Under the pieces are notes generated by a model. The model did not search any database. It was not told where the DNA came from and saw only the letters and a list, made by a program, of their open reading frames with translations. The translations under genes were made by a program, and so were the position numbers. A stretch of 62,866 nt of DNA, counting the filler, from Rhabdomonas costata (taxonomy: Eukaryota), in the NCBI GenBank assembly GCA_019059605.1. It is 48 parts of 48 records of this genome, joined end to end, with 100 filler letters (N's around TTAATTAATTAA, not from the genome) between each part and the next. Parts side by side here need not be neighbours in the genome. Positions count along the whole stretch, not along the records: positions 15,738 to 16,949 come from JAHMHO010023428.1; 47 more parts are not named here. One strand, given 5' to 3'. Within the stretch, counting starts at the first letter, position 1. Every line of letters starts with the position of its first letter. This document shows positions 1-56,562 of this stretch, in pieces.

Positions 1-1213
1 GTGGTGGGTGTGTTTGGTGGGGTGGTTCTAGCGAGGATGGGTCGGTGGGTGAAGGTGACGGTAACAGCATCGATGTGTCTAATTCTTGTGGGGTTGTTTG
101 TGTTTCGTGTTTGATGTTTGGGTTAATAGTGCGTCTGGTGTCATGGTTGCTGATGAGTTGACTTCTGGTGTGCTGTGGGACGATGGGGTGTTGGTTGCTG
201 GTGCTGGGTAATTCGGACTTCCTGTGTGCTCTGTTTGTCTTCTGTTGTGGCGATATGTGTGATCTTCTGGTGCTTATCGAGTGTTTTCAGTTGAAATTCA
301 TTCCTCCTATGGAGAAGTGTAAACCTGAAGAAGTCCTGCATCTAGAACATACCGTACTGCTGCCTTCAGCTAGTAGTGATCCGATAGCAACAATCTTTGT
401 ACAAAGGCTACCTGACATGTAATGACGGAAGTACATGGATGAACGGTGACGCAATCACTCACCTTTACTCACTGAAACGCGTTGTGTCTATGTCTAATCA
501 GCATCTATGAGTGAGATTGATGAGTTTGATTACAACACTATTAGAGAAAGTGTACACTGTCACAACTTATGCACGCAAATACAACTATGTCGACACCTCA
601 CACAGCAGGCATCACAGGTGGCGTGGGAGTGGAAGTCGTGCGCCATGACCACCATACTACATAACCTACACGTATGATGTATCATGACAGAAACACCATA
701 GCGTGTGTGGAGATAGCGTTGTCTGTTGTGCAAAAAAATGATGTTACGGTGAGGCCCAAACTCCCAAGTACTGATTTGAGGCAGCAGGTTAAAAGTGAAT
801 GTGAATGAACACTCACACCTATTGCTCGTACACCGTATCGTAGGAAGAGTTGTTGATGTCAAGTGCAACTGGTAAAACCACCCAGATATGGAGTTTCGTT
901 GACTCACCTACCATGGCGATAACTCTCACCCTACGAGGCACTTTGACGCTGCTCATTTGGTAACATCATGAACAAGTGGATTAACTGCCGTAGTGGATGT
1001 CGCCGAGACCAAAATTACCGGTTAGAAACAACACCATTAACACCAGAGGTACTGTGAAAGATACGATGCCTAAGGTGACTCAGTGTGATGGCAACCCTGT
1101 GGGTATGATCACTACCCATCCTGCTACCACCACTAAAAGTGAGTAATACGCTCTCTGTGTGTAGGAGTAGAGAGTGAAGGTAGAACGGTTTCGAGGCAGA
1201 GACAACCACAACC

Positions 1214-1313
1214 NNNNNNNNNNNNNNNNNNNNNNNNNNNNNNNNNNNNNNNNNNNNTTAATTAATTAANNNNNNNNNNNNNNNNNNNNNNNNNNNNNNN
1301 NNNNNNNNNNNNN
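1214..1313. other. Artificial contig spacer (44 N + TTAATTAATTAA + 44 N), first of 47 identical spacers recurring about every 1.31 kb
   Basis: Identical 100-nt block with stops in all six frames recurs throughout; flanking contigs are unrelated and near-equal in length (about 1203-1228 bp). Confidence 0.99.
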
Positions 1314-1516
1314 TTGTTGTTTGAGCGTCGTTGATAAGATTGGAGCCATTCTCCGCACTAAAAAGTGTGTGCCTGCTTTTTAAAGCTCGCTTTGGGTCGT
1401 CCCACTCCCGCCCTTAATCACTGCGAACTTGTTGAAAATGAATTATCGGTAACAGAAACGGGCAAGTTGAGGGATTATCCAAGGCGGTCTCTGCTGTGCC
1501 TCTGCTCCTTGGCTCG

Positions 1517-1790
1517 GAGGGTGCCGTGGTGTTGCAGGGCAAGATGCTGGAGCTGTCTGTGCAGCAGCTCGTGGACTGCGTCAACAACACTCGGCGGTGC
1601 GGGAATGATGGGATAGGCCAGGGCTGTGCTGGAGGCACCCCGGAGCTGGCGTACGAGTACCTCAAGGCCCGAGGCGGGCACGCCAGCCAATGGACCTACC
1701 CTTACACCTCGTTCTACAACCCTCTTCCGTATTGCTATGAGAAGGAGTTTTGCACCACCATCTGCAAGAAGGGGTGCGTCCCGTGCCCAG
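1517..1790 (+). CDS. Papain-family (C1A) cysteine protease, internal exon
   Basis: EGAVVLQGKMLELSVQQLVDC...GCAGGTPELAYEYL...TYPY matches the C1A motifs LSxQQLVDC, GCxGG and YPY; GT donor at 1791. The 5' boundary is approximate. Confidence 0.9.
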
Positions 1791-4700
1791 GTAATGGCAT
1801 CTATGAGGCTCTTGTCCTTTGTCGTTGGAGTCAAAACCTCTCCAGTGGGGGGAGGGGAACACGCGGAACTCGCGACAAAACAAGGGCAGTAGGAGGTGCG
1901 GCTCGAAATCGCTGCCAAAGCCACACCTTCAGGAGCCCGGTGCGACGTGGCACCAAAGGGTTGTAACCATGAGCTTTTCAAGGGCGCAAGGCACAAGGAA
2001 AATTGCAACAAAAAAAATCGAAAAAAAATTGGCGATGGTTTGGGATGGGACCCCCAAGTTTCGAAGAGGATCCCCCTCCCTTCAGAAAGAGCAAGAAAGA
2101 GCAAGAAGCAGAAACACCAGCCACACCGCAGCCAATCAAATCCCTAAATCTTTCTCCTGTAGGATCCTGGAAAAACTACAGGGGACACGTGCATCGCCTC
2201 TTAACCCCCCTGCAAACTATCTGTTGGAATCCCAGACCTCCCTCATAGAAAAACAAGAGCAGCTGTGAAAGAATCTCGGGAGCTTGGGGGAATCTCTTGC
2301 GAAATCTGGGCCAAAACGTTATAAAACCTATTATCTCTCTATATAATGCCTCTCTAACGGCTGAAGGCTTGTGGCCTGTTCTGCCTTGTTTGATGGAGAT
2401 TATTTCTTGCTGGACGGAAGAGTTGGACAAGTTCGTGGCACGGCCGCAGCAGGCAGTGTTCCCTGGGATGCAGATTGTTACGGCATTAAGTTGTTCAACG
2501 CCCAACCACCACCCACNNNNNNNNNNNNNNNNNNNNNNNNNNNNNNNNNNNNNNNNNNNNTTAATTAATTAANNNNNNNNNNNNNNNNNNNNNNNNNNNN
2601 NNNNNNNNNNNNNNNNGTGTTGTGGTGCCGCTTTTGCCTTTACACAGGCTTGGAAGGACCTTTTGTTTTTGCAATGGCTTTATATCGGGCTTGGGCTCTG
2701 ATAAGAGAAAGAACTGAAGGCTGGCACACCGTCCGCCCACCTGCACGCCGGTGTGCCACCAACAATTTATATACCGTTTACTTGGCAAACTTTTGTTTCG
2801 CCACAGAAGACAGGAAAACACTCGTCTCATAACCAGAGGCCCCGGGGAGCCGGGTTATGGAACAGCACAGTTTTGGTGCTGTGGCGGCGAATATAGTCCG
2901 CAAAAACATGTCTGTGGGGTGGGGTGGGAGAGGGTTCCGGAACACAAAGGAAAAGTTTGTACTGTGATCTGTGAAGAGGTCAATCTGGTATATCGTTCCT
3001 GATCACAAAACCACATAAGGTAGCGCTCCCGCTTCAGCCGCGCGCTCCTACGCGGCCACGGCGGCTGGTCTCCAACCCTAACGTCTACCAGCTCGTTTAT
3101 CAGAGCCCATTAGTCCAGCCAGTCGTCATAGTCTACCAGAAATTAACCCCAGGAAGGCTACAGCTAGACCAGCATCCAGGTTTCCTGCCTCACCCGGTAC
3201 CACCTTCAAACCGTTTGACCCCCTCTCCCAAATGCACCGCGCAAAACTACCACCCCGCTTAGTTCTTGCGGTGGTTGCGGATCGAGCCTAATGCCTAATG
3301 CGAGCTTTTCACACCAGAACCGAAAAGGAAAACAAAGGAACTCCATTGGTGAAAACAGATATTTAGAAAAAGCAAGGCAGCAACAAATACGCGCTTTTTA
3401 AGTGTGCAAGGCGTGCGCACCGTCAGGAATACCGCCTTGGCAGCCTGCCAACCTCCAGGGGGGGGGGTAATATGAGAAAGGTCACAAGCCCACGCACCTT
3501 CACACTCTTGTGAAGCAGCTTCTCGTAGAACCCGGTAGCAGGGCCTCACTCGCTTTTCGACGGGAGTGAACACCACATTGACCTAAGCACGCCCGTGAGT
3601 GGGCGAGCATGAAAGGGGGATGAGCAGTGCTGGTTGCATGGTTGGTGATGAGACGGATTCAAGCGCACCATACACGGCTGACATTGAGCCCGCCAGGCAT
3701 TCACACTGGCTAAAACAACGCTTACACACACTCTCATTCACACGCACACTAACATATGCAAACAGAAGACTCAGGGACAGTCTTCACTACTTTGGACCAT
3801 TGAGGGGCGCCTGCCACGTCCACCCCATNNNNNNNNNNNNNNNNNNNNNNNNNNNNNNNNNNNNNNNNNNNNTTAATTAATTAANNNNNNNNNNNNNNNN
3901 NNNNNNNNNNNNNNNNNNNNNNNNNNNNCGAAGTGCAGAGAACTGGTGTGATGTTAAGATCGTTAAGTTTTCACATCGCATGGAGGTACGTAATGCTAAG
4001 TCGCTGACGCGCTCGTTTCATAATCGGATACGGCACTTTGCAACCGAATCAGAATCAGAGAGGTTCCACCACAAAGGGTTACCCGTGAGACGACCGTGAA
4101 ACTCTGAGTTATTCCAAAGACGGTGGCTGTCGTCATTGCCACACCCATGACACCATTACCACCAGATCGCCAACAGGATCGCAAACAACGAAGCATGGAG
4201 TGATAAAGAAGAGGGAAAGGACATCACTGGCCTGCTTGCGGTGCAGCTTGCGGGCCACAGAGACAAAGCAGGGACGGCCTGGATCCATTGGGCACGGCCG
4301 TCCGCTGGCTGAACGAAAAACGAAAGGCAGGCTAAAATCCGTCACCACATTGTAACATTCCAGCCCAACCCAAAAAAAATTTGAAACTCACTCACAAGTT
4401 TCGCCCGCTCGGTGGAGTGGGGGTGCATTCGAGCAAATCAAAATAAAACGCAAGGATCCCGCGGTCGTTCGTTAGCTGCACCCAGGGGGGTGGGTCCGCA
4501 TCACAGGAAAGTGTCCCTTCCACCGCTTATGCATTGACTGCGCTGTGGGAACAGCTCCGGGTCTCATCACTGGGGAGCGGAGTGGCTATATTTTCCGAAA
4601 ACACCTCGAGAATGAAAAGTCAGAGCAAGAGAGAAGTCTGATGCATCGCCCTAATAGCCCCACATCATGAGCAGGAAAGCACAGGGTCGGTGGTAGGGGG

Positions 4701-5262
4701 TAATGCCGTGAGGGGGAGAAGCGACCTGTGTTGCGGGAGCCAGCCTCCCCGATCGAGATGGCCGTCTCGGTGTTCCCACCGCATATGCGCCAACACCTGA
4801 AAACAGAAAGCAGGCGAATAAAAGCAAAGGCTGAAATCAAGGGGTCCGAGAAGGGGCAAACAGCGTCGGGGGTCCGCAAAGAACCCGCCCATGTGCTCGC
4901 TTTGCAGTCCATAGCCTCACAACACAGAGGTAAGTTCCCAGCAACATCCCCGTTTCGGCCCTGCTGGTTTCCGCCCCATTACCTAAGGTGTCCAAAACCG
5001 TCCAGCAACCATTTCACTCTACAGAGCACAACCAGTCCCCCAATAATAAGGAAATAGACAATAGCAGCACCAATGTAGCTTACACTTTTGAAGCTTTCGA
5101 ATTCCACCACCTCGAACATTTTTCTATTTCCCACAAAACCNNNNNNNNNNNNNNNNNNNNNNNNNNNNNNNNNNNNNNNNNNNNTTAATTAATTAANNNN
5201 NNNNNNNNNNNNNNNNNNNNNNNNNNNNNNNNNNNNNNNNGGGGTGTGGGGTGCTCGGGTGG

Positions 5263-5896
5263 ACCACACCCGCACCGTGCAGTCGTCCGAAGCAGTGAAT
5301 AGAAGGGAGGAGGTTGGGGGGCCGAAGGCAAGGGAGTTGATGCACTTGCCAAAGTGGCTGAACCTACAGCGTGTGTGCGTGTGTGTATGTGTGAAAAATA
5401 TGCGAGCTTTATGAGTCCTTGTGGTGGTCGTACTGCCCGTGGGTAAATGGATGGAAAGAAAGGTGACGGGATGAAGTTCCAGTGTGATTGACTGTGGATA
5501 TATCTGTCGCACCTCGCAGACCTGCAAAGTATGCACCAAAAGCGGTTGTGATGGTCTATTTCAAATCCCTGGGCAGCAGCGCTGGACGCGGGATTGCTCC
5601 ACCAATTCAAGAGATCGAGATGTGTAAGTGAGAGTGAAAGTGGAAAAATCTGAGCTGAGCAACTGACTCATGCATTACTGGAGTGACTGGCGTTTGACGC
5701 TGGCGGAGTGGAGAGAGAGGGCGCGATGTGCAGATGCGTTGGGTTGCACAGGGGGCCCATACGTCGCAGCGCGGCTGCCATCGGAGAGGTTCCACACGAT
5801 CGCTACCCCGTCAGTCCCGGACGAGGCTACCACACCGCCCTGCGGCCCAAACGCGCAGTCTGTGACCGGCCCACGGTGGCCCTCGCATAGCAGCAA
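5263..5896 (-). CDS. WD40-repeat protein, two exons (5896-5763 and 5363-~5263)
   Basis: GT-AG intron 5762-5364 joins in phase (AC|G) to give EGHRGPVTDCAFGPQGGVVASSGTDGVAIVWN...AATFSHFGKCINSLAF...LFTASDDCTVRVW, two WD repeats. Confidence 0.88.
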
Positions 5897-8522
5897 CTGC
5901 GCGAGACGGAAAAATTAAAGGAAGAATACAATCCGCCGAAAACAGCGTTAAATTTGATCACTTTAGACAACAAAGCCGAAGCAGGTCCGGGGTCTTTTTA
6001 ATGTACAGTGGGTCTCCCGAAAAAAAAAACGTTTAAGATCAAGAAACCAGACGTTGCGTCGGCTTTCTTACGATACCACTCTTTCTATTCTAGGAGCAGG
6101 AAGCAAAAGGGCAGAAGGCAGAAAGCAAACAATCAGCGAATCCTTCAAAATACCAAAATACGAAATGATGTGCTGTAAATCAATCACTGCCGCCCGAGCA
6201 GACGGCATCAGAACCATCAGCAGGGAACCGTCATGAAGGGCTTTGCAATTTCACATGAAAATACTGCAGCATACAATGGGAAAACACCCTGCAGGCTGCT
6301 CAAGAGGGTTAGTCATTTCTTCTCCTACTCCTCACGGGCTTGAAAAATATGCCTGCCGGCCCGTCGCCCGCTCGAACACCCGCAGTGCCCAGTCCGCGCC
6401 GCCGCAGGCCAGAAGCAGCGAAGAGGACCCTCCGCCCCGCGCAGATGGCAAANNNNNNNNNNNNNNNNNNNNNNNNNNNNNNNNNNNNNNNNNNNNTTAA
6501 TTAATTAANNNNNNNNNNNNNNNNNNNNNNNNNNNNNNNNNNNNNNNNNNNNGTGGGTTGTGGAAGGGCTGATGAGCTGGTTCTTCTGCCTCGCGTAAAC
6601 GTTACCGCTGGGACTGATCTCTTTTTTTATCTTTGGTTTTGACTGATCCGCTGTTTCGCTCGAATGTGGACCCCAGACGTGTTCTTTGGGGCCCTGAGCT
6701 CATTGCCTTGTTTGTTTGATTTCGTGAATTTAATCCTGTAGGGCTGATTCTACTGCCCGAACAGGCGGGCATCTCTCGGTGTGTCGATATGCCTTAACAT
6801 GGGCCCTGGTGATGACTTCAATTCGCGGTTCCACCTTAATCCGAGGTCCGATGGTAGAACCACCGCGTTAAGGAGTTGTACTACGGGCCACCCTAAGTCG
6901 GTAAATCTCTGACTTGGGGGACAATGGAGCACACACCCTGGGATATATGCGCGGTAGTGTGGGCATGGAGCGTCCTTCCTTGCTTATTGCAAGCCAAGGG
7001 CGTTTGTCTCATTGTCTGCGTGGCTTCGCCCGCGCTGACGCGCACTCTTTTTAAACAACAAAACCTAGATAAAGCCTTGGTTTTCACGTGCTAAACTCGG
7101 TGGTAAACGATACAATTGCGTTCGTCGCCGAGAACGCTCTACTCCTCAAATTGCAGAACTTTTTTCAAGCGGGACGGGTGCCTTTCCTGCTTGCGCTGTA
7201 TTATTATTGACCATGGTATTGTGCGAGGGATGAGCTGACAGTTGTCTTTCTCCATCACTCTTACTGTGACACTTGGGAGGGTGTGGAATCCTCGAGCTGG
7301 GATCGCGCTGCTCTGTTGGGGGTTGTCTGGCGGTGGTCGGTGGACGCTGGGCCTGCCCCGTCGCGCCGGACTGACCACGGCGCCCGGGCGGCCGGAGTAC
7401 TCCGAGGCCCACCTGGCGGTGTACCTTCAGGTGCAAGTCAGCGACTGCTTCGCACGTTCTGTTTATTTAGATAGGAGAACGGTGAAGCCGTTGTGGCGCA
7501 GGTGCTGTGCGAAAGTCTGTTTGGATTGCAATATTTATGGAATCATCCGCTGGAAAACCTTCCCGATGAAGCGTTGGAAACGGTCCTATGCGGTTTTCGA
7601 AGAGGGGTTTCGCAGGTTGTATGCGGTCTTCCCCGTCGTCCCCGTGGTTCTCCATAGGTGCTGGCGCGGCTATGCTGTGCTGTGGCGCCATTTTCCTCCA
7701 CGCGCAATCGTATATGCTCTTGTCGTCAGACGCGTTCTGCTTCTCGAACCCCCCCCAACACCCCCNNNNNNNNNNNNNNNNNNNNNNNNNNNNNNNNNNN
7801 NNNNNNNNNTTAATTAATTAANNNNNNNNNNNNNNNNNNNNNNNNNNNNNNNNNNNNNNNNNNNNGGGGTGTGTGCCGATCCGATTCAAGGCAGAGAATC
7901 TCGACAAATGGAGAGAAACAGCAGACACGGTCGACTTCATCACAATGTACCCCAAGTTCGACCTAGAGCATCTACGAAAGAGAGTTGCCGAAGCGAAGTT
8001 GAGGAAGCCTGACAATATGAAGAACAAGGGGGTGAGGCCCGATGGGCCCATATGCCCCATTGAGGGTGGGGAGCCCGGGAGGGAAGCGAAACGCGAGTCC
8101 TCCCCACAAAAAGTCGTCCCGGCCAAGTGCACAAAGTGTGTGTGTGTGTGTGTGTGTGCATGTTTTTGCGTGTATGTTTGATTATGTATGTATTTGGTGT
8201 TTGACCCTTCCCAGAAGCCATCCAAGGTTTCGCCACGAACCGAGACTCCGGCCATATAAGCGCGCCGAGGCAACTGATGTCCCCAACCAGGCACCTGCTG
8301 GCCCCCATGTCCCCAGGAGAAGTCCTGCTTGGGGTTAGGACTTCCCCTTGCCTTCCCATCACCCATCTTCCCTGAGCGAGACCGGCATGGAACGCCGTGA
8401 ATAGGGCTTCGAACCGACTTTTTGTGACAAACTCGCACCACGATCCACTTTGTGCACCGAACTCGGTGTGTCCTCACACCCTCCACAGGTGTCCGAAAAC
8501 GTGCGCGCGCTTTCCTCCTCAG

Positions 8523-8640
8523 GGGATCTCCCGCAGCAGCTCCATGGTGATCGCCTACCTCATCCAACGCATGGGGCACACCTACGACAGCGCTCTGGAG
8601 CTGGTCCGCAGCAAGCGGCCCATGGTCAATCCCAACCCAG
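8523..8640 (+). CDS. Dual-specificity protein phosphatase, exon after the catalytic Cys
   Basis: cctcag|GISRSSSMVIAYLIQRMGHTYDSALELVRSKRPMVNPNP|gt matches the DSP motifs GxSRS, AYL and R..I.PN.G. Confidence 0.92.
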
Positions 8641-9200
8641 GTCCCGCCCTCTGTGGCCCTCTGTGTCCTGTCAAGTTATGTATGCGCGGTCAATGAAAAG
8701 CCCCTGCTCTCAACAGGTCGCCAGCTTAGCCGCCACAAAGGCAAGAAAGAAGAGAGAAGGAAGAATTCCGGAGGTCGTGGCCTCACTTTTGCACTTTGTT
8801 TCAACCATTACCAACCTCACTCGTTGGCGCTTGCTGCGCGTACACAGGTACACACACGACGGAAAATCAAAACAAAAAGGACAAGCGTCGTCAGGTGCAC
8901 AGCCTGCAAGGAATGCAGGCGCGGTTCCTGTCCGTCCTGACTAGAACATATATAAGAGACAGAGTGCACAGCTCTGGACACGCTGTCAGGTGGATAAACC
9001 CCATACACCCCGTTCTGAACCCTGTTGTCCAACCCACAACAACACCGAGTCACACAAAACCCAACCACACCCACCACNNNNNNNNNNNNNNNNNNNNNNN
9101 NNNNNNNNNNNNNNNNNNNNNTTAATTAATTAANNNNNNNNNNNNNNNNNNNNNNNNNNNNNNNNNNNNNNNNNNNNGGGGTTTGGCAACCTGAGCCCCG

Positions 9201-10383
9201 GGCCACGGCCTGCGACATCGCCATTGCCTCCTCGGGGCTCAGGTTGCCAAACGCCAAGCACTCCACTCGCGACACGGGGTAAACCGTGTCCCGCGCAAAG
9301 CTCTGCAACTGGGCCACCGTGAGGGGCTGTACAGCTGCGGCGCGGAGCTCCTTTCGGGTGTACGTCGGAGTGCGGGTAAGCTGCTTGGTATAGTAGTCCG
9401 GGAGCTCCGTGGCAGGGCTGGCAGAGTCCTGCGAAATCCCGTGACCCAGACAGCGGATGTCTTCGGGCCCCGTCTGCAATACTTAGACAGCACAGTGGAC
9501 ACACGCGCGGATCTGGGAAATGCGACCCTGCCATCTTGGTGGTCGGCCTGTTCCGTGTCAGCTTCTGTTTCTGCTGTTGTTCCCGAAGTCGGAAGTCGGA
9601 TGTTTTCTTCGCTGAAGCTGTATACGTGGAGGAAACCTTTTCAAATAGTTTCCATTCCGCCCGAAAAAAGTCCATTGAAAATTGCATAATCTCAGACACT
9701 GAAAATGAACCATTTCACGAAACATTACCAACTCCTCTTTCACTTTTAAGGCCCCATCACCAGTGGTTTGCAACACTCAAGCTGCAAAGCAAGAATACAA
9801 CTTTTTCGGGTATGACAAACATTTTCGAGTGACCGAAAAATACCTTACAATCTTTTACAAGCCTCTTCAGACGTTTCATCCCTTTTTTACCCTTTCAGAA
9901 AAAGGTAGCCCCCATCGCGAGGATGTCTACCCGCTGCTCCGCCGGGATGTTACGCAAATCTAGGATGTACGAACTCAATACTTTTTACCAGCAAAGGCGC
10001 AAAAACATTCTGAATGGGCCCAGATGAGTGGGGGGTTAGGAAGCGAGGCACGAGATACTTGATCTCCAAGGGGGTTGGCTATGTTCCCTAGAAAAGGTTC
10101 ACTGCTGAAGGTATGCCATTGTTTCAAACAAAAAAGAACATCTTGCATTAGTGCACCAAAACGGAGACGGAACACACACCGAGTTGTTCAGCCCCCTGCG
10201 GTATGTGTCCACCAGAACGCTCAGCCTAGCCGCCGTGAGCGACGGCACCGGCACCCCGCCAGACGTGCCCCCGGTCACCGTCTCCAGCACTGTCGCCAGC
10301 AGCTCCTGCAGTGTGTCGGAGTAGCCCGACACGGACATCTCAAACCCCGTGGAGGTGGTGGAGAAGTCATAGTCCAACCCCAC
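9201..10383 (-). CDS. Insulysin/pitrilysin family (M16A) metallopeptidase, two exons (~10383-10180 and 9428-~9201)
   Basis: GLDYDF...GFEMSVSGYSDTL...YRRGLNNS|DSASP...YYTKQL...ECLAFGNLSPEEA resembles the IDE middle domain; GT-AG intron 10179-9429, phase 0. Confidence 0.85.
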
Positions 10384-10609
10384 AACACCNNNNNNNNNNN
10401 NNNNNNNNNNNNNNNNNNNNNNNNNNNNNNNNNTTAATTAATTAANNNNNNNNNNNNNNNNNNNNNNNNNNNNNNNNNNNNNNNNNNNNGGGGGTGTGTG
10501 GGGCCTGCCTGACGCCAATCGATTGTCTCAGGAGCGGTGACTTTGGCGGCGTTTTTCTTCGCTGGGGGTGCGCGAAGATGAAGGCGTAGGGTTGGTTGGG
10601 GCCACTCGC

Positions 10610-11214
10610 CTGGATCTTGCGTTGCTGGGATTCCAGCTGGGCCTTCAGGGCCTGGATGTCCTGCTTCAGGGACTCCACCTGCTTCTCCGTCTTCTTCTGC
10701 GCGCAGTTCTCCTCCAGCAGGGCCTTCTCCTTGATCGAGATCTCCTCCTTGAGCTGGTCGATCTGGTGGTTCATGATCTGTGTGAAATCGGAGAAAGGGC
10801 CGCGAAACCCTAAATTCGAATCATCAGGGTGGTGTGTGTGCCCAGTATGCAGAAGGCAGAATTCCATGGATTCCTGACAATATAAGAACGGTTAGTAAAG
10901 CAGGATTTGCAAAAGAAAGCAAAAGTCAATTTGCGATTTAAAACGAGGAATAACCCAGTTGCTAACGCTTTCAAAGCACCACCAAAAATTTCTTTCCATC
11001 GCCTTTCTTCCCGGAGGTGCACAGAACTTTCACTTCACACCTTGAACTTTCGCTTCATCTCATTGATCTCGTCGCGGGCCTCGATGAGATTCTTGGAGTA
11101 CAGGTTGCGGTCAGAGCGCACGGCCTCGTAGAGGGTCTGCTGCTGCTTCAGCTTTGCCTCGCTCTCTGTGATCTGCTTCTGCAGGTCCGTGATTGTCATG
11201 GAGCGGATCTTCAC
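10610..11214 (-). CDS. CFAP58: Cilia- and flagella-associated protein 58, two exons (11214-11041 and 10777-10610)
   Basis: KLKQQQTLYEAVRSDRNLYSKNLIEARDEINEMKRKFK|IMNHQIDQLKEEI is the conserved CFAP58/CCDC147 segment; second exon ends at a GC donor (CAG|GCGAGT). Confidence 0.92.
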
Positions 11215-11841
11215 CTGAGGAAAGGACATGAGTGGCGAGAGTGGCGCGGCAAGAACATGTGGGCTTGCGTGATGTTCTGATAAAAGAAGGGCATGCAATC
11301 AGTGGTTCAAAGCAATGCTCACAGGTTGGGGTGAAAACAAACCTAGAAACTGACACACTGCATGCAAGCAAACATGGGGACAGCGGGCATTGGCGACTTG
11401 ACTGTCGAATTTAGGGAGAGATTGTGGAGATCCAATGATGAAAGCTGATGGTGATGTGTTGCTTCCACTGGGTCACTGGCTGTACTCGAACTCACACATC
11501 GACAAGGGAACGCTTTCTATCCTCCGTACTCTGGTCTCATGTGGAAGCGCACTTGCATCGGTGCATATCGCACCTCCTTACCAGCGTTCACACCCTTTTC
11601 CCTGCTTTTCTTTCACTCACTTGTCCTCCTGGTAGGCTACGACTAATATGGTTGCAGCCACCCATCAACCCCCACACGCCGTTCCACAGTTCAGCACATA
11701 GNNNNNNNNNNNNNNNNNNNNNNNNNNNNNNNNNNNNNNNNNNNNTTAATTAATTAANNNNNNNNNNNNNNNNNNNNNNNNNNNNNNNNNNNNNNNNNNN
11801 NTGTGTGGTTGGTCAAGTCACGATGCACAACGCACATATAC

Positions 11842-12047
11842 CTGAATTTGCTTCTGCTCTTCCAGCTCTTTGACCGACTCTACCTGGGACACAAACCAAT
11901 GGCTCAACACACACGGGAAGTATAAAAGAAAGCCAACCACAACTGGCACCAGCAAAGCTCAAAAGAGCGGCTGTATCAAGGTACCGTTGAGCTCAAGCTG
12001 TCCTGGTTCTTCTTCAGCTCGAGAACATTGGTAGTAATCGAATTCAG
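11842..12047 (-). CDS. Two short coiled-coil exons of an unknown protein (12047-11985 and 11883-11842)
   Basis: AG/GT-bounded phase-0 exons LNSITTNVLELKKNQDSLSST and VESVKELEEQKQIQ, separated by a 101-nt intron. Confidence 0.55.
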
Positions 12048-13399
12048 CTGACAAGAAATCCACCACGCACCCAGTACACCAACGAGAGTAACCAATAAAG
12101 CAATACCGAAGCAAAGAGGCAATGAACCATTGCGACAGAGAACGAACAAACAACCGCTATCAAGGGTTCGTTGAGAGGGATTTGTCATTTATAAAGATGC
12201 AAATAAGCATACAAATAATGGCATAAGATTCAATTCAGCACTTTCAGAAATGCCAGAAAAGGAGGAACACACGCACATGCGCAAACCTCCGAAATGGTTT
12301 GGTTTCCCTTCTCCATGAGTTCCAAAAAGGAACTGGCCACAGTCTTTACCCAAAGAGAAACAACGAGACACAGTGATAACCTACACTACAAAGGGGACAG
12401 GAGTGGAAGCTAACGAACACTTCACCTCAAGGCAAAATGAAAACGGAGCATTACGAGAGCTGCAGAAACGGCAGGATCCATATACAGGCAGTGACTTGTG
12501 CGACATTTTCATGTCCGGAGATTCGCAATCGGTAATTTGTGAGTATATGCCATTCTTTTTGGATTACCAGTAAGCTTTTCGGCAACTCACTCCAACAGCC
12601 TGCTTAAAATAAATCTCTATAGATCACACGTTTGAATTAGAACACCCATTCACTTTTGCGATGGACGATTCCCCTGGAATCACAATGGCACGTTTGTTCC
12701 ACGATTTCTTGGGCCACGGAGCGCAGCGGAGAGAAAACTCCAAGGACCGGCGACACGGCGTTTCGGGAGCCCTGCCGTATAGAGTGAAGACCCCACACCA
12801 TTTTCGGATTTGCTCCTCCACGGAAATCATAATGCTTTTTGAACACCCAAAAGAAAAGCAAACTGAAACAACAACTTGAAAAGATCAGGAAAGAAAAACA
12901 CTGTGGCGGGTGCCTTTAATTCAGCATAATAGCAGTGGGTGGGAAAAAAAACTTGATTCGCGCACGGCAAACACCAAGCAACGTTAGTCGTAGAACATTA
13001 ACCCCCCCCACACNNNNNNNNNNNNNNNNNNNNNNNNNNNNNNNNNNNNNNNNNNNNTTAATTAATTAANNNNNNNNNNNNNNNNNNNNNNNNNNNNNNN
13101 NNNNNNNNNNNNNGGTGGGGGGGGGTTATAATCATAAGCCGTGTCATAGTCCATTGGAACGCCACGAGTGCCTCCACACAGCGCACACGCACGCTCTCCT
13201 CCTGTGCTGCATTTCCTGTGTGTACTCTGTGCGTGCTGTTAATTTAGTACATCATCCGATATTCCATGTCCACCCATGCACGTTGTACCAACAACGTGGA
13301 GAGGGCGGGCGGAGCAAAGGGGTGAGCTTTACGGGGTACCCCAAGAACAAAAGAGATATTCACCATCACCCGGCGATGGAGTTCAGAGCAGAATATGAG

Positions 13400-13470
13400 C
13401 TCCGTGGCGGGAGTCGAAACCGGAATTCAGCCGTGAGAGGGCTGGGTTCTAACTGCTATACTACGGCGGA
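13400..13470 (-). pseudogene. Degenerate tRNA-Glu(CTC)
   Basis: Anticodon arm CAGCC-CTCTCAC-GGCTG is intact and TTCGA is present, but the D-loop GG is lost and acceptor and T stems are mismatched. Confidence 0.75.
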
Positions 13471-13537
13471 ATTCTCAGCACAAATGATATGCGTTTGGGT
13501 TTAGGAAGCAGTTTCACGTCGTTCAATAAAGAAAAAC

Positions 13538-13602
13538 AGGGAGGACCGGGAATCAGGTTATTGCGGCCACAACGCAATGTTCTACCTCTAAACTATCCTC
13601 CC
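13538..13602 (-). pseudogene. tRNA-His(GTG) pseudogene with T-arm deletion
   Basis: Perfect acceptor stem GGGAGGA/TCCTCCC and anticodon arm TTGCG-TTGTGGC-CGCAA, but about 7 nt including TTC are missing from the T arm (65 nt total). Confidence 0.8.
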
Positions 13603-13676
13603 AAATGTCTTTCAAATTATTGCTGGTTCGTTGTGATTGACTTTTCGCCCGAGTCGACCACTTCAACAGCATTTAA

Positions 13677-13727
13677 GCGAGGTTGGCTCAGTCGGCACGA
13701 CTGGCGCGAAGGTCTCACAAATCCTTC
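13677..13727 (+). pseudogene. Possible 5' relic of a tRNA (Met-like)
   Basis: GCGAGGT-TGGCTCAGTCGG A-box, then a GAAGG/CCTTC stem around TCTCACAAAT; no T arm. Confidence 0.35.
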
Positions 13728-13831
13728 CTGCCGTATCCATCAGGCCACGGGGGCAATCAGAAATTACTTCAGCCAATACTATGGTCGAAAATGAGTGATC
13801 CTTTAAAACATGGGTCGGTTCTGATGACGGC

Positions 13832-13903
13832 GGCCGTTTGGTCTAGAGGCATGATTCTCGCTTTGGGTGCGAGAGGTCCCGGGTTCGATTCACGGAACGG
13901 CCC
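13832..13903 (+). tRNA. tRNA-Pro(TGG)
   Basis: 72-nt cloverleaf, acceptor GGCCGTT/AACGGCC, anticodon arm CTCGC-TTTGGGT-GCGAG; one T-stem mismatch (CCGGG/CACGG). Confidence 0.92.
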
Positions 13904-13961
13904 TGCCTGCATTGGTGTCTGTTTCTGCTCTAGTAAGTAAAGGCTCTGCAAGGAAACACCT

Positions 13962-14033
13962 TCCCGGTTAGTATAGTGGTTAGAACACCTGGTTTTCACC
14001 CAGGAAACCCGGGTTCAATTCCCGGACCGGGAG
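13962..14033 (+). tRNA. tRNA-Glu(TTC)
   Basis: 72-nt cloverleaf, acceptor TCCCGGT/ACCGGGA, anticodon arm CCTGG-TTTTCAC-CCAGG, T arm CCGGG-TTCAATT-CCCGG; T-runs downstream. Confidence 0.95.
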
Positions 14034-14100
14034 TTATTTCCAACCACCTTACCCACCTTATGAGCTTTTTATCTCTTTTTGATCTCTGAAATAAAAGGAG

Positions 14101-14173
14101 CACCGTCCGTGGGGCTCGAACCCACGACCACAAGGTTAAGAGCCTTGCGCTCTACCGACTGAGCTAGGACGGC
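14101..14173 (-). tRNA. tRNA-Lys(CTT)
   Basis: 73-nt cloverleaf GCCGTCC...GGACGGT, anticodon arm CAAGG-CTCTTAA-CCTTG, T loop TTCGAGC. Confidence 0.96.
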
Positions 14174-14237
14174 TTACAGCACTTTTATAGTATTTTTATT
14201 ATTAAAAAAATTTTTAGCTTATGCTGTGTCTAAAATT

Positions 14238-14284
14238 TGCATTGGCCGGGAATCGAACCCGGGTCGCATCCGTGGCAGGGATGC
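14238..14284 (-). tRNA. tRNA-Gly(GCC), 3' half only; 5' half replaced by a fold-back copy
   Basis: CATCC-CTGCCAC-GGATG-CGAC-CCGGG-TTCGATT-CCCGG-CCAATGCA; beyond the anticodon arm the sequence is the inverted copy. Confidence 0.8.
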
Positions 14285-15272
14285 GATCCGGGTTCGATTC
14301 CCGGCCAATGCAAATTTTAGACACANNNNNNNNNNNNNNNNNNNNNNNNNNNNNNNNNNNNNNNNNNNNTTAATTAATTAANNNNNNNNNNNNNNNNNNN
14401 NNNNNNNNNNNNNNNNNNNNNNNNNGGTTTTTGGTGCACGGGAGTGCAACGGGGCGGCTGATGTACGTGCCAGAGCGCAGACAGGGAGAAGTACGTCGGT
14501 TGTATGCTCTACAAGAATAAGAAGGAATCGGACGGCGCAGCATTGTTGTTCGCGAAGCCATTTCAGAAGCAGGAGCCAGAGAGACGGAGAAGAGATGCAG
14601 TGAAAGCATTCGAGGGGAGAAGGCAGACTGTAGGGTTGGAGAGGGCGTTACAGCGTGTTTTCGCGGGAGCGGGCTTCATTTCAAATCATGAAAATACCGC
14701 TCATGTGTGTGTGTTGTGGTGATCGGAAACTTCCGAAGACTGACATCCTCATCGACGCACACATCCAATGCCACGCCGTGTGTTCATTTTTCCCGATGGC
14801 AACGGTTGCTTAGTCAGACAAAGTTAAGGGTTAAAGTCCCGGTTAAAGCCAGTCATCTGGTGCTTTTTCCCCGCCTCAGAGGAGCCTACAATTTTTACAT
14901 CAGTTTTTGCGAGCATATGCTGTTTAAAAATTTCTGGCATCATCACGAAGTATATTGCTCAGCTACCACTTGGGCTGCAGTTCGACAAGCATCCCGCAGG
15001 CGCCTCAGTCCAAAGATCCGAATGTGAATGCAATTGGAAGAGAACAGGGCACGGTGGAGTCAGCAGATACAGCAAGAAAACGAAAGTACACCAAACGTGA
15101 TGCACGTCAGGGCTTCACAGAAAATATCAAAACATCCACGACGAAATATACAACCAAGTGCAGAAAAACGTTCCCCATAACAGGGTTCCGAACGCCGTAA
15201 AGTGTCCTCTGCAACGTTCGGTTCTCGGCCGAAGACTCAAGACGGGTTCATATCGCCTCCCTCCACACTACG

Positions 15273-15350
15273 TTACAGCTTGCTAGCGGGCGCCTTCTGG
15301 CTCTGCAGCAGCTTCTGCAGCTTCTGGGACTGCATGACGTTTCCCTTGAT
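15273..15350 (-). CDS. Terminal exon of a peroxisomal SCP2-domain protein (SCP2/MFE-2-like) with PTS1
   Basis: tttcag|IKGNVMQSQKLQKLLQSQKAPASKL*; matches the SCP2 C-terminal K(I)xGNxMxxxKL motif and ends in SKL. Not in the ORF track. Confidence 0.82.
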   Translation of the reverse strand: MKGNVMQSQKLQKLLQSQKAPASKL

Positions 15351-15893
15351 CTGAAATCAGAAACCAAAAATCGCGACACGGCGAGTCCTGCTTCCTACCC
15401 CCAAACCAGCCCCAAAACCGCCCTAATGAGCTTGTCAAAGCTCGTCAAAGCGGAGAAGCGGGCTCCATTAAAAAACAGCCGCTTCAAACAGCCGCTTCAT
15501 TGCACATAAGAACATAGCATTTGCACTGCTATCTTGTAATTGGCTCTGTTGCTACACAAGTCTCCTTCCAAGGACAACCAGCTGATGATTCCACATGTGC
15601 AACCGTGCTCATAGCATTGACTTGCCCCCACACCCCCNNNNNNNNNNNNNNNNNNNNNNNNNNNNNNNNNNNNNNNNNNNNTTAATTAATTAANNNNNNN
15701 NNNNNNNNNNNNNNNNNNNNNNNNNNNNNNNNNNNNNGGTTGTGCGTTTGGTCCATTTTGTCCATATCCTCCCATGATCTGGGTTGGACCCTGTGTTGGC
15801 TCCATTTTTCCGGCTGAAGATCAGAATGGCTGCATATGGTCATGCTCGTGGTGTGCTACTGCTTTGATACATTTTTCTTGTTTTCCTCTTCAG

Positions 15894-16004
15894 CGTTGAC
15901 CTGCGCCACGGTAACCTGCCCGAAGAACCACTTACTGCGCCCCAATCCCTCCTCCACCACATGCCGCCGGGCAGCCTGCACCACCGAGGAGTGCTGCGTT
16001 CCTG
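15894..16004 (+). CDS. 6-Cys module exon, copy 1 (phase 1-1)
   Basis: Polypyrimidine-cag|(A)LTCATVTCPKNHLLRPNPSSTTCRRAACTTEECCVP|gt; 111 nt. Confidence 0.8.
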
Positions 16005-17740
16005 GTGTGCAGCAAATTCGGGAAACCAGGATCCAGAGCTTCGGAGCTGAATGTGAATGAATGGGGGCCGGAGTTGCGTAGTGTAACAATGGATGGCTGT
16101 GAAGTTCCTTGTCCAAGGTTTCGATTGGAGCGCGCTAAAGGCGTAGGATAGCCCTGGTAAACCCTTAGAGCAAGTTGAGGGGTCCACGACCACGCTTGGA
16201 AGGAAGCAATTGTGCTGCCTTAGCAACTTAGACGTACAGGAAGAGAAGGCCGTTCGCTGCTGTTCGGCCCTTTCGGTGCTGCGTGGGCAGCCACGAGACG
16301 CGCCAAGTGACGTGAGAACTGTTCTGTTGGGCTAGCTCGTTTCTAGGTCCTGGCAAGACTTTGGTAAGAAGAGCGGGGAGGAGACGGATCGGTCACCGCG
16401 GGAAGAGATAAGGTTCAATGCTTCAATGCTGCTGCTTGCAAACCACGAACCCTTGACCATCGACAGGGCAGCTCAAGGACAAAGCAATGCCTTCAAGGTG
16501 TCTGCACCAACTCACGCACGTGCATGTATGACAGGTCTCTGGGGGCAAGGAAACGAGGGAGGGAGGTTCACCTTTCAAGCCCGCTGTAGCAAGAAGCTGC
16601 CATTCTAACACGAAATTTTCTGTGTTAGAACATTTTTGTTGCTAAATCCCTTGAACGAGCACAACTTTCGAAGATTCCTTTCACCTTTTCTGTTATATTG
16701 CCCCCCCTCCGCACAAAAATACAGAAGATTGGCGGTTGCGCGAGTTGGTGGTGGTGCTGGTGGGGTTTGTTGCACTCACCTCCCATTCTGTTTTCAGTCC
16801 ATGTGCGGATGCACGTTGAGGGGTCCCGCAGGCACTTCAAGAGGTAGGAAAACGCTTTACTGTGGCAGACACAGAGGAGAAAGAGGCAGGCGAACTGCTT
16901 ATAGCGGTAGGGAAAGGCGGCTGTGCACAGCCGCCTTTCCCACACAAAANNNNNNNNNNNNNNNNNNNNNNNNNNNNNNNNNNNNNNNNNNNNTTAATTA
17001 ATTAANNNNNNNNNNNNNNNNNNNNNNNNNNNNNNNNNNNNNNNNNNNNTGTTGTGGGGATTCTCCTGGAGATTCTGCGCGATCAGGCCAGCGCGGCAGC
17101 TTCGAAGAGGTGCGCTACTGCATACTGAAAGGATACAGCTTAGGTATGATGATGGAACAGCATTAATGACATTAAAGGCGGAGCATGTTCATTCGCGCTT
17201 TTACTCGTTTTCCATTTCCACGACGCGGCCATGCTCTCATTCCACAAGTGTGTGTGATTTGTGTGTTCGCTGTTCTATGTGCCCCATCCCCATCGGTATT
17301 GTCTCCTCCCTTTTCGCCGCCCACCTTTTTTTGTCATACTGTGAGTTTAAGTTTGTGTGCAGAAATAGACCGCCTTTGCCGGTTCCCCGCCTTGCTCTTT
17401 TTTATTCCAGGTGCCGTTTGCGTTGACCGCTTAGTCGCAGTGATTAAAGGACCCAACGCGAGCTTTCAAAAAAAAAAGAACAGCCGCCATTAAAAAATTT
17501 GCCCAGTGGAATAGGGCGAGAAGAGTAGGGAAGGAAAAGTGACGAAAACTGCTGCAGTTTTCCCTCCGCTTCGATCCTCAGGTCTGAGGCTCACGTCAGT
17601 TGAACACAGGCAACGGGGGTGCACTCTTCTTACTACTTGTTTCGGTTCCCTCTCTCTCTCTCGCTTTCTCTTTTCCTTTCTTTGCGTGTGACCACATCCA
17701 ATCGCAGTGCTGCTCTGCAGTGCAGCGAGGCACTTTGCAG

Positions 17741-29423: not shown

Positions 29424-29985
29424 ATGGTTGGGCCTTCTCTCAGCCTGGTGCTGCCGCAGCTGGTGGTATTGCTCTTGGTCGGCTGCGGCGTGTGGAGTCC
29501 CGTAGTCCTTCGTATGAACTTTTTTGGTCGTGCATTCCGTGCATCAGCCCCTCAGTTTCAGTTTCAGACCTGCTTACGAACATTCCTCCTTGCACACGTT
29601 GCAGAAGTGGGACGGGGTTCCATGTTTTTGGTTTGGGTGCAAGTTTTCCTGACGTAATGCGAAGGCCAGGCGCCGACTCCCATCACCCGTTACCCGCGGC
29701 CAATTCCAGAACGGCGCTTTTCACCTCCAGTGCGAGAACTGCTTGCCATAGCATCCGCACTCTCAGCTGGTTTCGCAGCACGCTCATTAATTGCATTGGC
29801 CTTCACCACGGCCTCCACTTATGATCCTCTGGTCATGTTGGTCTCCTTCTTTCTCAACGCAGCGACTTCGGGCCAAGGAATCTTCACCTGTGGCAGTGCC
29901 TTCTCCTGCCCCTCGGGGTTCACTGCTAACCCTCCCGCCTCGGCTTGTGCCAACGCAGCGTGCACCCAGGATGAATGCTGCACTG
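29424..29985 (+). CDS. Secreted protein: signal-peptide exon (29424-29487) plus 6-Cys module exon copy 2 (29863-29985)
   Basis: MVGPSLSLVLPQLVVLLLVGC joined via G|gcgtgt...cgcag|CG to ATSGQGIFTCGSAFSCPSGFTANPPASACANAACTQDECCT; both donors would be GC. Confidence 0.7.
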
Positions 29986-30583
29986 GCATGTGCCCCTAGT
30001 TCAGCTCCTCCTGTTCGTTTTCCTCCCTCGTCTCTTGCCTCTGCGGCGGGACGGAAGGGCCGGAAGGNNNNNNNNNNNNNNNNNNNNNNNNNNNNNNNNN
30101 NNNNNNNNNNNTTAATTAATTAANNNNNNNNNNNNNNNNNNNNNNNNNNNNNNNNNNNNNNNNNNNNGGGGTTTGGTGCGCTGAATTCCTGGGGTACCTC
30201 CAAAATTGACGTCGTAAGTTGAAGTTCCCAGTGCATGTTCGAGAGATCCTTTAGACGTGATGCCTGCCTCGAGCTGCCTCGGCTAGTACCTTCTGCCATG
30301 AAAAGTGAGAATGTATTCTATCTATTCCCGCGTAATAAATGCAGCAATCAAGCAAAACAAGCATGTATACAGCATCATTTTGACCATAACCATGGTCTAT
30401 GCCTTCTGCCGAGTCCGCCGATGGTGGTTGTTTTCGTGTTTGTGTGCGTATGGAATGTGTGTGGCTTTCTAATAAAGACGTTCTGGTCCAGCGTGCTTAC
30501 TGTGCTTTCCTCCGCCTCCCTCCCTCCTTCGTTTGGCTTTCTCGGCTCCCTTTGCCTGTGTCTGTGCTGAGCGTCCCGCCGTG

Positions 30584-31548: not shown

Positions 31549-32681
31549 TTATAAAGTAACATCTTCAAGACGTAAACTTCCTTCCGATCTAAAACTTTCA
31601 GCAGGTCTTAAATCTTCGTCCGATCTAAAACTTTCATCGAGTTTTAGACTTCTTTCAGATCTGGAACTTTTGTCAAGTCTTTGACTTCCTTCATATCTGA
31701 AACTTTTGTCAAGTCTTTGACTTCCTTCATATCTGAAACTTTCGTCAGGTCTTAGACTTTCTTCCGATATGGGACATCCTTCAGGTCTTGAACCTGAAGA
31801 ATAAAACATTTGTGTTATATCTCTCATTTTTGTATTTTTTAAATTTTGTAATATATTTGTTGTATCTATTATAATATTGTTACTGCTGTTAATATATACA
31901 GTAACATAACCGCTCAAATTAGATGTTACTACCAATGCATCTCTATACTGTTTATCATTCTTTGCAAATTGTGCATTACTTTGAATTTTTAAATTTATTT
32001 GTAACATGTTCCCATCTTTTTTTCAATACATATATCAGATCTCATTGGATTGCTACTTGACCTTGTTGTACAATATTCATAATATTTTTTAATTTTTTCA
32101 ATTACATTATGTGAGGTTTCATCTGTTATACGTTTTAAATGCTCAAAACCACATTTTCCTGGTAATGCAGATGAATCCTTTTCAATTCTAAAAATATCAT
32201 CATCATCATTTTCTTTGCTTTTGTATGTACTAATTAATGATTGAAATATTTGTAAAAATAACCGTTCTGAAATAATAAAACTCATTGTACCATAATTTTT
32301 TATAGTTTTGGGTATATATATATCTCTTAACTGTGTTTTATATATTGTATATATTTGATTTTTTGTTGTGTCATCAATTTTATCTATATTTTCATTTTGT
32401 ATTAAATATTTTTCTTTAATCTTATCTATATTATTGATTCTATTTTTATATGTATTGTCTAATAAATCAATTATGTCTTTGAGCAAATTTATATTTGAAT
32501 CATATAATGAAGTAGATAATGATGATATTAATTCACTTTTATCTATTTCATATTTTTTTAATTCTGTTGCGATTATATCTAATTTTCCAATATTTGATGT
32601 ATATAAATCTATAAAATTGTTTATGTACATATACATTTTATTAAAATTATCATATGTATCATATGGTTCTTTTATTATTTC
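31549..32681 (-). CDS. AT-rich intronless ORF, 5'-partial; probably one gene with a homopolymer frameshift near 32017-32023; foreign to the host genome
   Basis: The frame is open from the contig end (EIIKEPYDTYDNFNKMY...) through the 213-aa ORF; one extra A in the A7 run fuses it to the 152-aa ORF (IEKKDGNMLQINL); Ile/Asn/Lys-rich with A/T-ending codons. Confidence 0.7.
31560..31770 (-). repeat. 36-nt (12-aa) coding tandem repeat, about 5.5 copies
   Basis: SLRPDESFRYEG SQRLDKSFRYEG SQRLDKSSRSER SLKLDESFRSDE DLRPAESFRSEG SLRLED. Confidence 0.9.
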
Positions 32682-32825
32682 CCCACAAAACNNNNNNNNN
32701 NNNNNNNNNNNNNNNNNNNNNNNNNNNNNNNNNNNTTAATTAATTAANNNNNNNNNNNNNNNNNNNNNNNNNNNNNNNNNNNNNNNNNNNNGTGTTGGGC
32801 ACTACGTCTCCGAAAGCTTTCCCAT

Positions 32826-40555: not shown

Positions 40556-40813
40556 CAACCACNNNNNNNNNNNNNNNNNNNNNNNNNNNNNNNNNNNNNN
40601 NNNNNNTTAATTAATTAANNNNNNNNNNNNNNNNNNNNNNNNNNNNNNNNNNNNNNNNNNNNTGTTTGTTTGTTTCCTTTTAAGTACTGTTGATCAGTTG
40701 TGACACTTACTGGTTCTGTTATCGTTTTTTGTTCTTCTTGCTGAGCTCAGTGAGCACAGCCTGCCTGTGTTTGCCCAATGTAAAACACATTTTTGTTCGT
40801 TTTCTTTTAATAG

Positions 40814-56448: not shown

Positions 56449-56562
56449 CAATACAGCACTCCGTGTCCGCGCACATCGAGGTGCTGCACACCGTGCTGGC
56501 ATTGCTGAGGGCGTACCCTGTCGGGCAGCTGTAGTTGCTGCCGCAAGTGGGACCCGTCTTAT
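56449..56562 (-). CDS. 6-Cys module exon, copy 3 (phase 1-1)
   Basis: gcgcag|(D)KTGPTCGSNYSCPTGYALSNASTVCSTSMCADTECCI|gtatgc; 114 nt; not in the ORF track. Confidence 0.82.

Follow-up and report, generated by a model that had tools for sequence, protein, structure and literature searches.

The genome of the euglenid Rhabdomonas costata (NCBI GenBank assembly GCA_019059605.1) contains a recurrent coding module with six cysteines, three copies of which were recognised in a stretch of 62,866 nucleotides (hereafter, the window). With considerable confidence, the three copies are best explained as single-module exons of three different nuclear genes, each encoding an unnamed extracellular six-cysteine module. 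The window consists of 48 contigs of 1203-1228 bp each, with a GC content of 0.245 to 0.605, separated by spacers of N and TTAATTAATTAA. A reading of the sequence alone had placed the motif in one exon on each of three unrelated contigs, and the coordinates, motif and exon lengths (111, 123 and 114 nt) that it gave were all verified. The three exons and their borders, with a slash marking the exon edge, are as follows.

Positions 15894-16004, plus strand: module exon copy 1, 111 nt, phase 1-1 as supported by homology; peptide (A)LTCATVTCPKNHLLRPNPSSTTCRRAACTTEECCVP(G).
Borders of copy 1: acceptor ...ttttcctcttcag with its AG at 15892-15893; donor GT at 16005-16006 (gtgtgc).
Positions 29863-29985, plus strand: module exon copy 2, with a length of 123 nt given splicing at G/GC; peptide TSGQGIFTCGSAFSCPSGFTANPPASACANAACTQDECCT.
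Borders of copy 2: acceptor ...tctcaacgcag/CG; at the 3' side either a candidate GC donor at 29986-29987 (gcatgt) or the ending GMCP-stop, with the stop codon at 29997-29999.
Positions 56449-56562, minus strand: module exon copy 3, with a length of 114 nt given splicing at G/GT; peptide (D)KTGPTCGSNYSCPTGYALSNASTVCSTSMCADTECCI(G).
Borders of copy 3: acceptor ...gatgcgcag with its AG at 56564-56563; proposed donor GT at 56448-56447 (gtatgc); the frame is open to the end of the contig at 56413.

The motif shared by the three copies, TC-x4/5-CP-x11/13-C-x4-C-x3-ECC, occurs once on each of three unrelated contigs of about 1.2 kb; when the window was searched in six frames with the corresponding regular expression, these three places and no others matched. 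The same three places were singled out by a hidden Markov model (HMM) of 146 modules collected from 35 other proteins, which scored copy 3 at E 5.4e-12, copy 1 at 3.7e-11 and copy 2 at 1.1e-10 in the six-frame translation; this model includes one module, from the R. costata protein P0005, that is nearly identical to copy 1. The next-best open reading frame (ORF) reached only E 0.043. It lies at 12380-12532 on the plus strand and was considered as a fourth candidate, but it reads VTCATFSCPE and then meets a stop, and the match looks like chance. As an observation apart, this frame, which ends in ...VTCATFSCPEIRNR-stop, is similar to the module over the first half of the latter; the resemblance is probably fortuitous, and could also be that of a decayed or split copy. 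At the DNA level, the three exons are just 55-56% identical to one another, and no further similarity between their contigs was detected by blastn (E ≤ 1e-3). Their GC content is 61-66%, and the GC content at third codon positions (GC3) rises to 65-84%, compared with about 47-56% in the flanks where enough flanking sequence is available. Because of the low DNA identity of the exons and the dissimilarity of the contigs in every other respect, copies 1-3 are diverged coding paralogues and not a dispersed repeat. Among the remaining ORFs that were scanned on the three module contigs, none had a match to a Pfam family, viral or other.

The extent of the family became visible when a profile built from the three peptides was compared with 1.84 billion representative proteins. 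This search returned 57 matches at E ≤ 1e-3, eight of them at E ≤ 1e-10. Complete six-cysteine modules, between one and 13 per protein, were found by regular expression in 36 of the 57. The 21 others hold no complete module; sushi, CBM_14, cEGF or C-type lectin proteins account for at least 10 of them, and five (P0021, P0024, P0037, P0039 and P0057) have neither the module nor a Pfam family. Membership of the family was defined by the spacing C-x3-7-C-x8-17-C-x3-6-C-x2-5-CC together with a significant score against the family profile, and copies 1-3 show both the six-cysteine spacing and E-values from 5e-12 to 1e-10 against the HMM of 146 modules. Those modules, extracted together with two flanking residues, have six invariant cysteines, most often spaced C-x4-C-x14-C-x4-C-x4-CC, and yield the consensus PTCSSFTCPSGYTLKSASTTCAGATCTTEECCTP; the cysteine columns are likewise invariant in an alignment of 35 sequences. 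The module is about 34-37 residues long, or about 36-40 in the three window copies, and can be written as P-T-C-[GS]-S-[FY]-x-C-P-x-G-[FY]-x-x-K-...-[ST]-T-x-C-x4-C-T-x2-[ED]-C-C.

The sequence-only reading could not assign the module to a named Pfam family, and wider searches led to the same outcome. Against Pfam, the three peptides gave nothing at E ≤ 10 apart from a sub-threshold hit of copy 1 to DUF3637 (E 0.043); when 35 modules were compared with Pfam at E ≤ 1, no family recurred in more than two of them; module-bearing proteins had no Pfam family over the module region; and 48 proteins found with the 35-sequence profile carried no precomputed Pfam family for the module. In the sequence library of the PDB, the best E-value was 0.86 for the three peptides and 0.75 for the 35-sequence profile. 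Full-text literature searches found no description of the module, and in the main text of the species' genome paper, searched for the terms cysteine, kelch, extracellular and repeat, the domain is not mentioned. The module is a real and recurrent repeat family that has neither a Pfam model nor a relative of solved structure. Judged against Pfam, the PDB and the full-text literature, it counts as a new family of domains, although its general kind is familiar.

As an alternative, the module could belong, in divergent form, to a named cysteine-rich family such as EGF/cEGF, sushi or the TNFR cysteine-rich domain, which we consider improbable. EGF modules are small extracellular units with six cysteines, used in tandem and alongside many different partner domains, and their exons are classically of phase 1-1; their signature is C-x-C. 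Sushi domains measure about 60 residues, with four cysteines and a conserved tryptophan. EGF, sushi and TNFR domains share a hairpin that the module's N-terminal half, C-x-x-[FY]-x-C-P-x-G-[FY], seems to resemble, and the EGF-like and cEGF domains have a similar C-x-C-P-x-G-[FY] hairpin. Sushi (CCP/SCR) domains are also extracellular tandem repeats, and in one of the matches (P0002) the central stretch ...C-x-F-S-C-P-x-G-Y-x-L-x-G... aligns with the N-terminal half of the module. In the same direction point the sushi, CBM_14, cEGF and C-type lectin proteins among the 57 matches, of which the cEGF proteins are weak ones; the best PDB sequence matches, which are sushi-containing complement proteins; and the ESM Atlas model of a protein with three modules (P0046), whose neighbours are unnamed clusters together with weak TNFR_c6/EGF structures at template modelling (TM) scores of 0.25-0.35, below the bar for naming. 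However, in the sushi, cEGF and CBM_14 matches that were checked (e.g. P0002, P0012, P0015, P0017 and P0020) the best stretch covers approximately positions 5-28 of 37, and never the half with C-x4-C-x4-CC. The sushi alignment is limited to profile positions of about 9-28, the N-terminal half only, and the PDB matches have E-values of just 0.75-0.86. No EGF-type Pfam model matched the three peptides (E ≤ 10) or the 35 modules (E ≤ 1), Sushi (PF00084) did not match the modules, and no EGF, sushi or TNFR model was found on the 35 modules at E ≤ 1 or over the module region of true members. The cysteine spacing also differs from that of EGF, since the module ends in an adjacent CC pair and has no C-x-C, and it shows neither the tryptophan nor the four-cysteine pattern of sushi. 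The ShKT domain, which came up in the literature search, was set aside after no ShK-type model matched either the peptides or the 35 modules; its cysteine spacing differs from that of the module.

AlphaFold2, applied to copy 3 with the 35-sequence alignment, returned a model with a mean predicted local distance difference test (pLDDT) score of 80.1 and a predicted TM score (pTM) of 0.40, in which a short helix precedes the CC pair and the bridges are isolated. The model is consistent with a compact fold, and the six cysteines presumably form three disulfides. The pairing of the third with the fourth cysteine is suggested because 28 modules of a Symbiodinium protein lack these two cysteines jointly, and the first and second cysteines may then bond to the terminal CC pair. 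A bond between the third and fourth cysteines would not fit the EGF pattern 1-3, 2-4, 5-6.

The proteins closest to copies 1-3 are from the transcriptome of R. costata itself (EukProt EP00906), and they show in which context the module is expressed. Seven of them were found, listed here with the short designations used below.

RCo029663: P0005.
RCo042062: P0008.
RCo019443: P0014.
RCo026432: P0009.
RCo036889: P0043.
RCo041942: P0028.
RCo003070: P0034.

All of them carry the same module, but none is the exact product of a locus in the window, and the sources provide identifiers only, with no annotation. The N-termini of all seven are hydrophobic and were read by eye, with no predictor, as signal peptides or anchors, which upholds at the level of sequence reading the earlier proposal that the module is extracellular. 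The claim that it is combined with unrelated partners was also borne out. In P0008 and P0014, three or four modules at the N-terminus precede a Kelch propeller (Kelch models, E 1e-16 to 1e-24), and one more module stands at the C-terminus; P0043 consists of a Kelch propeller and a module at its very end; and in P0028 two modules come after a subtilase (Peptidase_S8) domain. Other partners in the family are F5/8 type C (P0013) and PNPOx (P0035), and LCCL and SAP plus MMPL appear as precomputed Pfam hits. An NxS/T sequon is present in 37 of the 146 modules. Between modules, a length of five residues is the most frequent, seen in 53 of the 94 linkers that do not exceed 12 residues. These features together match what a mobile extracellular module for spacing or adhesion would show. 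The module proteins would be secreted or membrane-anchored, with modules single or in tandem, a view taken from the homologues, the window loci being fragments without N-termini. The module may act as a rigid unit for spacing or adhesion, locked by disulfides and often N-glycosylated; as a spacer it would hold a binding or catalytic domain off the cell surface, in the manner of EGF, sushi or TNFR-type cysteine-rich repeats. In P0009, the stretch between modules 3 and 4 (residues ~133-190) is rich in cysteine and tryptophan (...CTTCAVAGSCGWCGSS...) and has no Pfam match at E ≤ 1e-3; we take it to resemble a PSI domain.

The exon structure is the second part of the argument. AG and GT (or GC) dinucleotides are by themselves weak evidence for a splice site, and the support for the borders comes from homologues. 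Residues 85-122 of P0005 match copy 1 at 92-94% identity, and the similarity stops exactly at both proposed borders: P0005 reads ...QEECCVPA/PTCATV...TEECCVPG/DEYPNVW, and the genome reads FSSSA/LTCATV...ECCVPG/VQQIRE, with a stop 17 codons further on. The junction residues of copy 1, alanine as G/CG and glycine as G/G.., fit a codon split after its first base, and comparison with P0005 supports copy 1 as a phase 1-1 exon.

For copy 3, the border on the 5' side is supported by a second exon upstream on the same contig, listed here together with the putative intron in between.

Positions 57059-57365, minus strand: exon for part of a Kelch-like beta-propeller, belonging to the gene that includes copy 3, with two SPDGxxW blades; it starts after ccgcag and ends in phase 1.
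Positions 56563-57058, minus strand: inferred GT...AG intron from the Kelch exon to copy 3, 496 nt, with donor TTA G/gtccac and acceptor gcgcag/AT.

Alone, the Kelch exon matches Kelch_1 weakly, below the Pfam cut-off (E 0.0054), and it was counted as a Kelch beta-propeller through its tblastn matches to the Kelch proteins P0008 (E 2e-13), P0014 (6e-11) and P0043 (1e-10). A database search with the exon gave three relatives only, at 35-38% identity, and no exact transcript was among them. The order in P0008, P0014 and P0043, Kelch and then module, is that of the contig of copy 3. Joining the Kelch exon to copy 3 creates a GAT codon and the sequence ...VVFSLDKTGPTC, to be compared with ...VVYSLAKTGPRC in P0008 and ...VAYSLQARLTC in P0043. 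Donor and acceptor are both in phase 1, and the join restores the SL-x-KTGP junction of the paralogues (here SL-D-KTGP). Other T/GT donors further on would also give phase 1, and the spacing in the paralogues favours the first. An in-frame TGA at 56572-56570 means that the exon of copy 3 must start downstream of it; with the AG at 56564-56563 the border is in phase 1, whereas with another AG, at 56559-56558, it would be in phase 0. Phase 1 is thus supported at this border. On the other side, G/gtatgc is a plausible candidate donor.

Copy 2 has an acceptor with a pyrimidine tract (cag/CG) that resembles the acceptor of copy 1. After ...ECCT, the sequence continues G/gcatgtgcccctag, which offers two readings, a GC donor whose position is homologous to that of the donors of copies 1 and 3, or a C-terminus with GMCP-stop. 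Between a GC donor and a terminal exon the balance is nearly even, tilting slightly towards the candidate GC donor. A portion of PMC8219788 describes GT(GC)/AG as the conventional intron type, and in its whole supplementary file GC-AG introns make up 634 of 10,095 GT/GC-AG entries (6.3%). The sequence-only reading had assigned phase-1 splice sites to both flanks of all three exons; that claim is supported for both borders of copy 1, through P0005, and for the 5' border of copy 3, through the donor of the Kelch exon, and for the remaining flanks it stands at the level of candidate donors and of the acceptor of copy 2.

Several observations weigh against the reading of the copies as internal exons of three genes of a new module family. 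Between P0005 and copy 1 there are 3 differences in 38 residues, and P0005 is for this reason a paralogue or an allele, so that the support for the borders of copy 1 is homology and not RNA from its own locus. No transcripts of the three loci themselves were found in the protein searches, and a word-based search of proteins of 71-2000 residues with the copy 2 peptide had no match. The acceptor of copy 3 has no pyrimidine tract, and read-through at its 3' side continues to the end of the contig as IGMPCAPRPSSTT, which resembles the Pro/Ser-rich linker of P0008. P0043 (...CCT) and P0009 end directly after a module, and copy 2 could therefore be a terminal exon. As for the fold, the copy 3 model had no match in the PDB by Foldseek, none of 48,161 chains at Z ≥ 2 by VIA-align and a best E of 4.2 in BFVD, with the limit that a model of 37 residues is too small for these scores and that such nulls say little on fold class.

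Part of these observations feeds the alternative that the phase 1-1 structure is not general, copy 2 being terminal and copy 3 running into a Pro/Ser linker, and that the family grew by gene or tandem duplication without shuffling. We regard this as rather unlikely. The points in its favour are these: the stop of copy 2 lies five codons past CC-T, the two R. costata proteins just named end with a module, the open frame past copy 3 looks like a linker, and viral, brown-algal, diplonemid-labelled and dinoflagellate proteins contain long tandem arrays. Against it stand the phase 1-1 structure of copy 1 by homology with P0005 and the presence of G/G[TC] at the same spot in all three copies, 1-2 residues past CC. 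Past the proposed donors of copies 2 and 3 the sequence is CT-rich, like the start of the inferred intron between the Kelch exon and copy 3, and GC-AG introns, with 6.3% of the listed ones, are common in the species. In two metagenome ORFs (P0032 and P0052) the sequences CCTG/TSLAVFFFFFF, CCTG/SSVC and CCAG/VPLSL look like intron read-through at the same Gly codon, at the protein level only. A residue whose codon starts with G (A, G, D, E or V) is found at position +2 or +3 after CC in 14 of 17 modules of R. costata transcripts versus 22 of 55 modules of intron-free viral-like arrays, a comparison that is weak (p 0.02) and was chosen after seeing the data. As a side observation, seven further metagenome ORFs (P0044, P0045, P0054, P0056, P0088, P0092 and P0101) contain one or two modules each, followed in six of the seven by CC-x-x-G-[EK] and in P0088 by CC-E-Q-S-E. 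Such endings are expected from read-through of a G/GTGAG, G/GTAAG or A/GTGAG donor, a hint that a different lineage, possibly stramenopile, also has a phase-1 intron there.

The internal-exon reading places each module in one exon between phase-1 introns, with a split codon that would start with G, 2-3 residues after CC. Because each exon would be bounded by introns of the same phase, copies could be duplicated or inserted without breaking the frame, and exon shuffling would be a means of expansion.

The family is not restricted to R. costata. Source names were looked up for 30 of the profile matches: seven are from the R. costata transcriptome, one is from the brown alga Cladosiphon okamuranus and 22 are from metagenomes or metatranscriptomes. 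A deeper profile added a protein of 1,366 residues labelled Rhum_TRINITY, a second protein with Cladosiphon-style numbering and a protein of 1,834 residues from Symbiodinium natans. In one part of PMC7052976, 'Rhum' designates the diplonemid Rhynchopus humris. The Symbiodinium protein (P0103) contains, at residues ~259-1120, 28 tandem modules of 31 residues with four cysteines, those without the third and fourth, and no module of the six-cysteine type. A multi-pass membrane region follows its array, and its source name, UGT80B1, looks misleading.

The module also occurs in giant viruses (Nucleocytoviricota). On contig L001, an array ORF is located two genes away from a major capsid gene of nucleocytoplasmic large DNA virus (NCLDV) type (Capsid_N, E 5e-20) and adjoins a gene for the catalytic subunit of a poly(A) polymerase (E 8e-50); two further IMG/VR contigs with module arrays are labelled GVMAG. 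The arrays of L001, L003 and L004 (P0004, P0010, P0011 and relatives) consist of the same six-cysteine module with the same spacing, four to nine per array. In the L003 protein, four modules are combined with a Ser/Thr-rich stalk and, at the C-terminus, a hydrophobic membrane anchor, a layout that indicates surface display. Giant endogenous viral elements have reportedly been found in Euglena gracilis, which, together with the three viral contigs, counts in favour of taking copies 1-3 for remnants of endogenous giant-virus DNA and not for host genes. This origin is nevertheless very improbable. The viral arrays are intron-free, lie in AT-rich DNA (38-50% GC in L001), use P-N-P-T linkers and have no Kelch partner, whereas the window copies are single exons with a GC3 of 65-84%, bounded by splice signals, and copy 3 is joined to a Kelch exon as in expressed proteins of R. 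costata. The absence of any Pfam match, viral or other, among the other ORFs scanned on the three contigs points the same way.

Directly seen are at least seven distinct transcripts and three genomic loci. Extrapolation from three exons in 58,152 non-N bases gives 3,027 module exons (95% interval 624-8,846) for the contigs that are 1 kb or longer, 58.7 Mb in all, and 5,514 (95% interval 1,137-16,115) for the whole assembly of 106.9 Mb; these figures are not counts, they assume that the window is a random sample and they use assembly sizes from an excerpt of the published account of the species. A large expansion of the module, seen from three matches in 58 kb, is plausible. Exon shuffling could be at most a local mode of spread, because the giant-virus arrays of the same module are intron-free.

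The rest of the window contributes observations on other subjects. The contig at 31480-32691 has a GC content of 0.245, as compared with 0.43-0.61 in the rest, and may be foreign or contaminant DNA; two long ORFs on its minus strand, at 31995-32735 and at 31549-32022 (the latter with SFR/SLR-type repeats), have no Pfam match. An ORF for an aspartyl protease of retroviral type (gag-asp_proteas E 1e-9, RVP_2 E 4e-8) is probably a fragment of a long terminal repeat (LTR) retrotransposon. It is listed here with the other recognisable genes.

Positions 48573-48920, minus strand: retroviral-type aspartyl protease ORF.
Positions 40704-41504, plus strand: uninterrupted frame of 266 codons for a mitochondrial carrier (Mito_carr E 4e-46), with no intron inside.
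Positions 1442-1966, plus strand: exon fragment of a papain-family protease (E 3e-10).
Positions 36291-36626, minus strand: exon fragment of a class-III aminotransferase (E 3e-15).
Positions 10099-10389, minus strand: exon fragment of the middle domain of an M16 peptidase (E 3e-9).

The existence of the same module in R. costata, in other eukaryotes and in giant viruses invites a broader and rather doubtful proposal: an undescribed three-disulfide family common to Euglenozoa, brown algae, dinoflagellates and giant viruses, possibly moved by the viruses, which in the euglenid would have grown to hundreds or thousands of single-module phase 1-1 exons by shuffling of the animal style. Symmetric phase-1 exons for modular cysteine-rich repeats are regarded as a signature of the extracellular proteins of animals. 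If the proposal is true, a clear case in a euglenid, a discoban protist, would mean that the same route to surface-protein diversity arose outside animals. There is also an annotation gap: the family has no Pfam model and is for that reason invisible to current annotation, even though at least four lineages of eukaryotes, and giant viruses too, possess it. With a model of the Pfam type, many surface proteins that are now called 'hypothetical' would be annotated, and the module proteins are candidates for the recognition between protists and giant viruses at the surface of the cell or of the virion.

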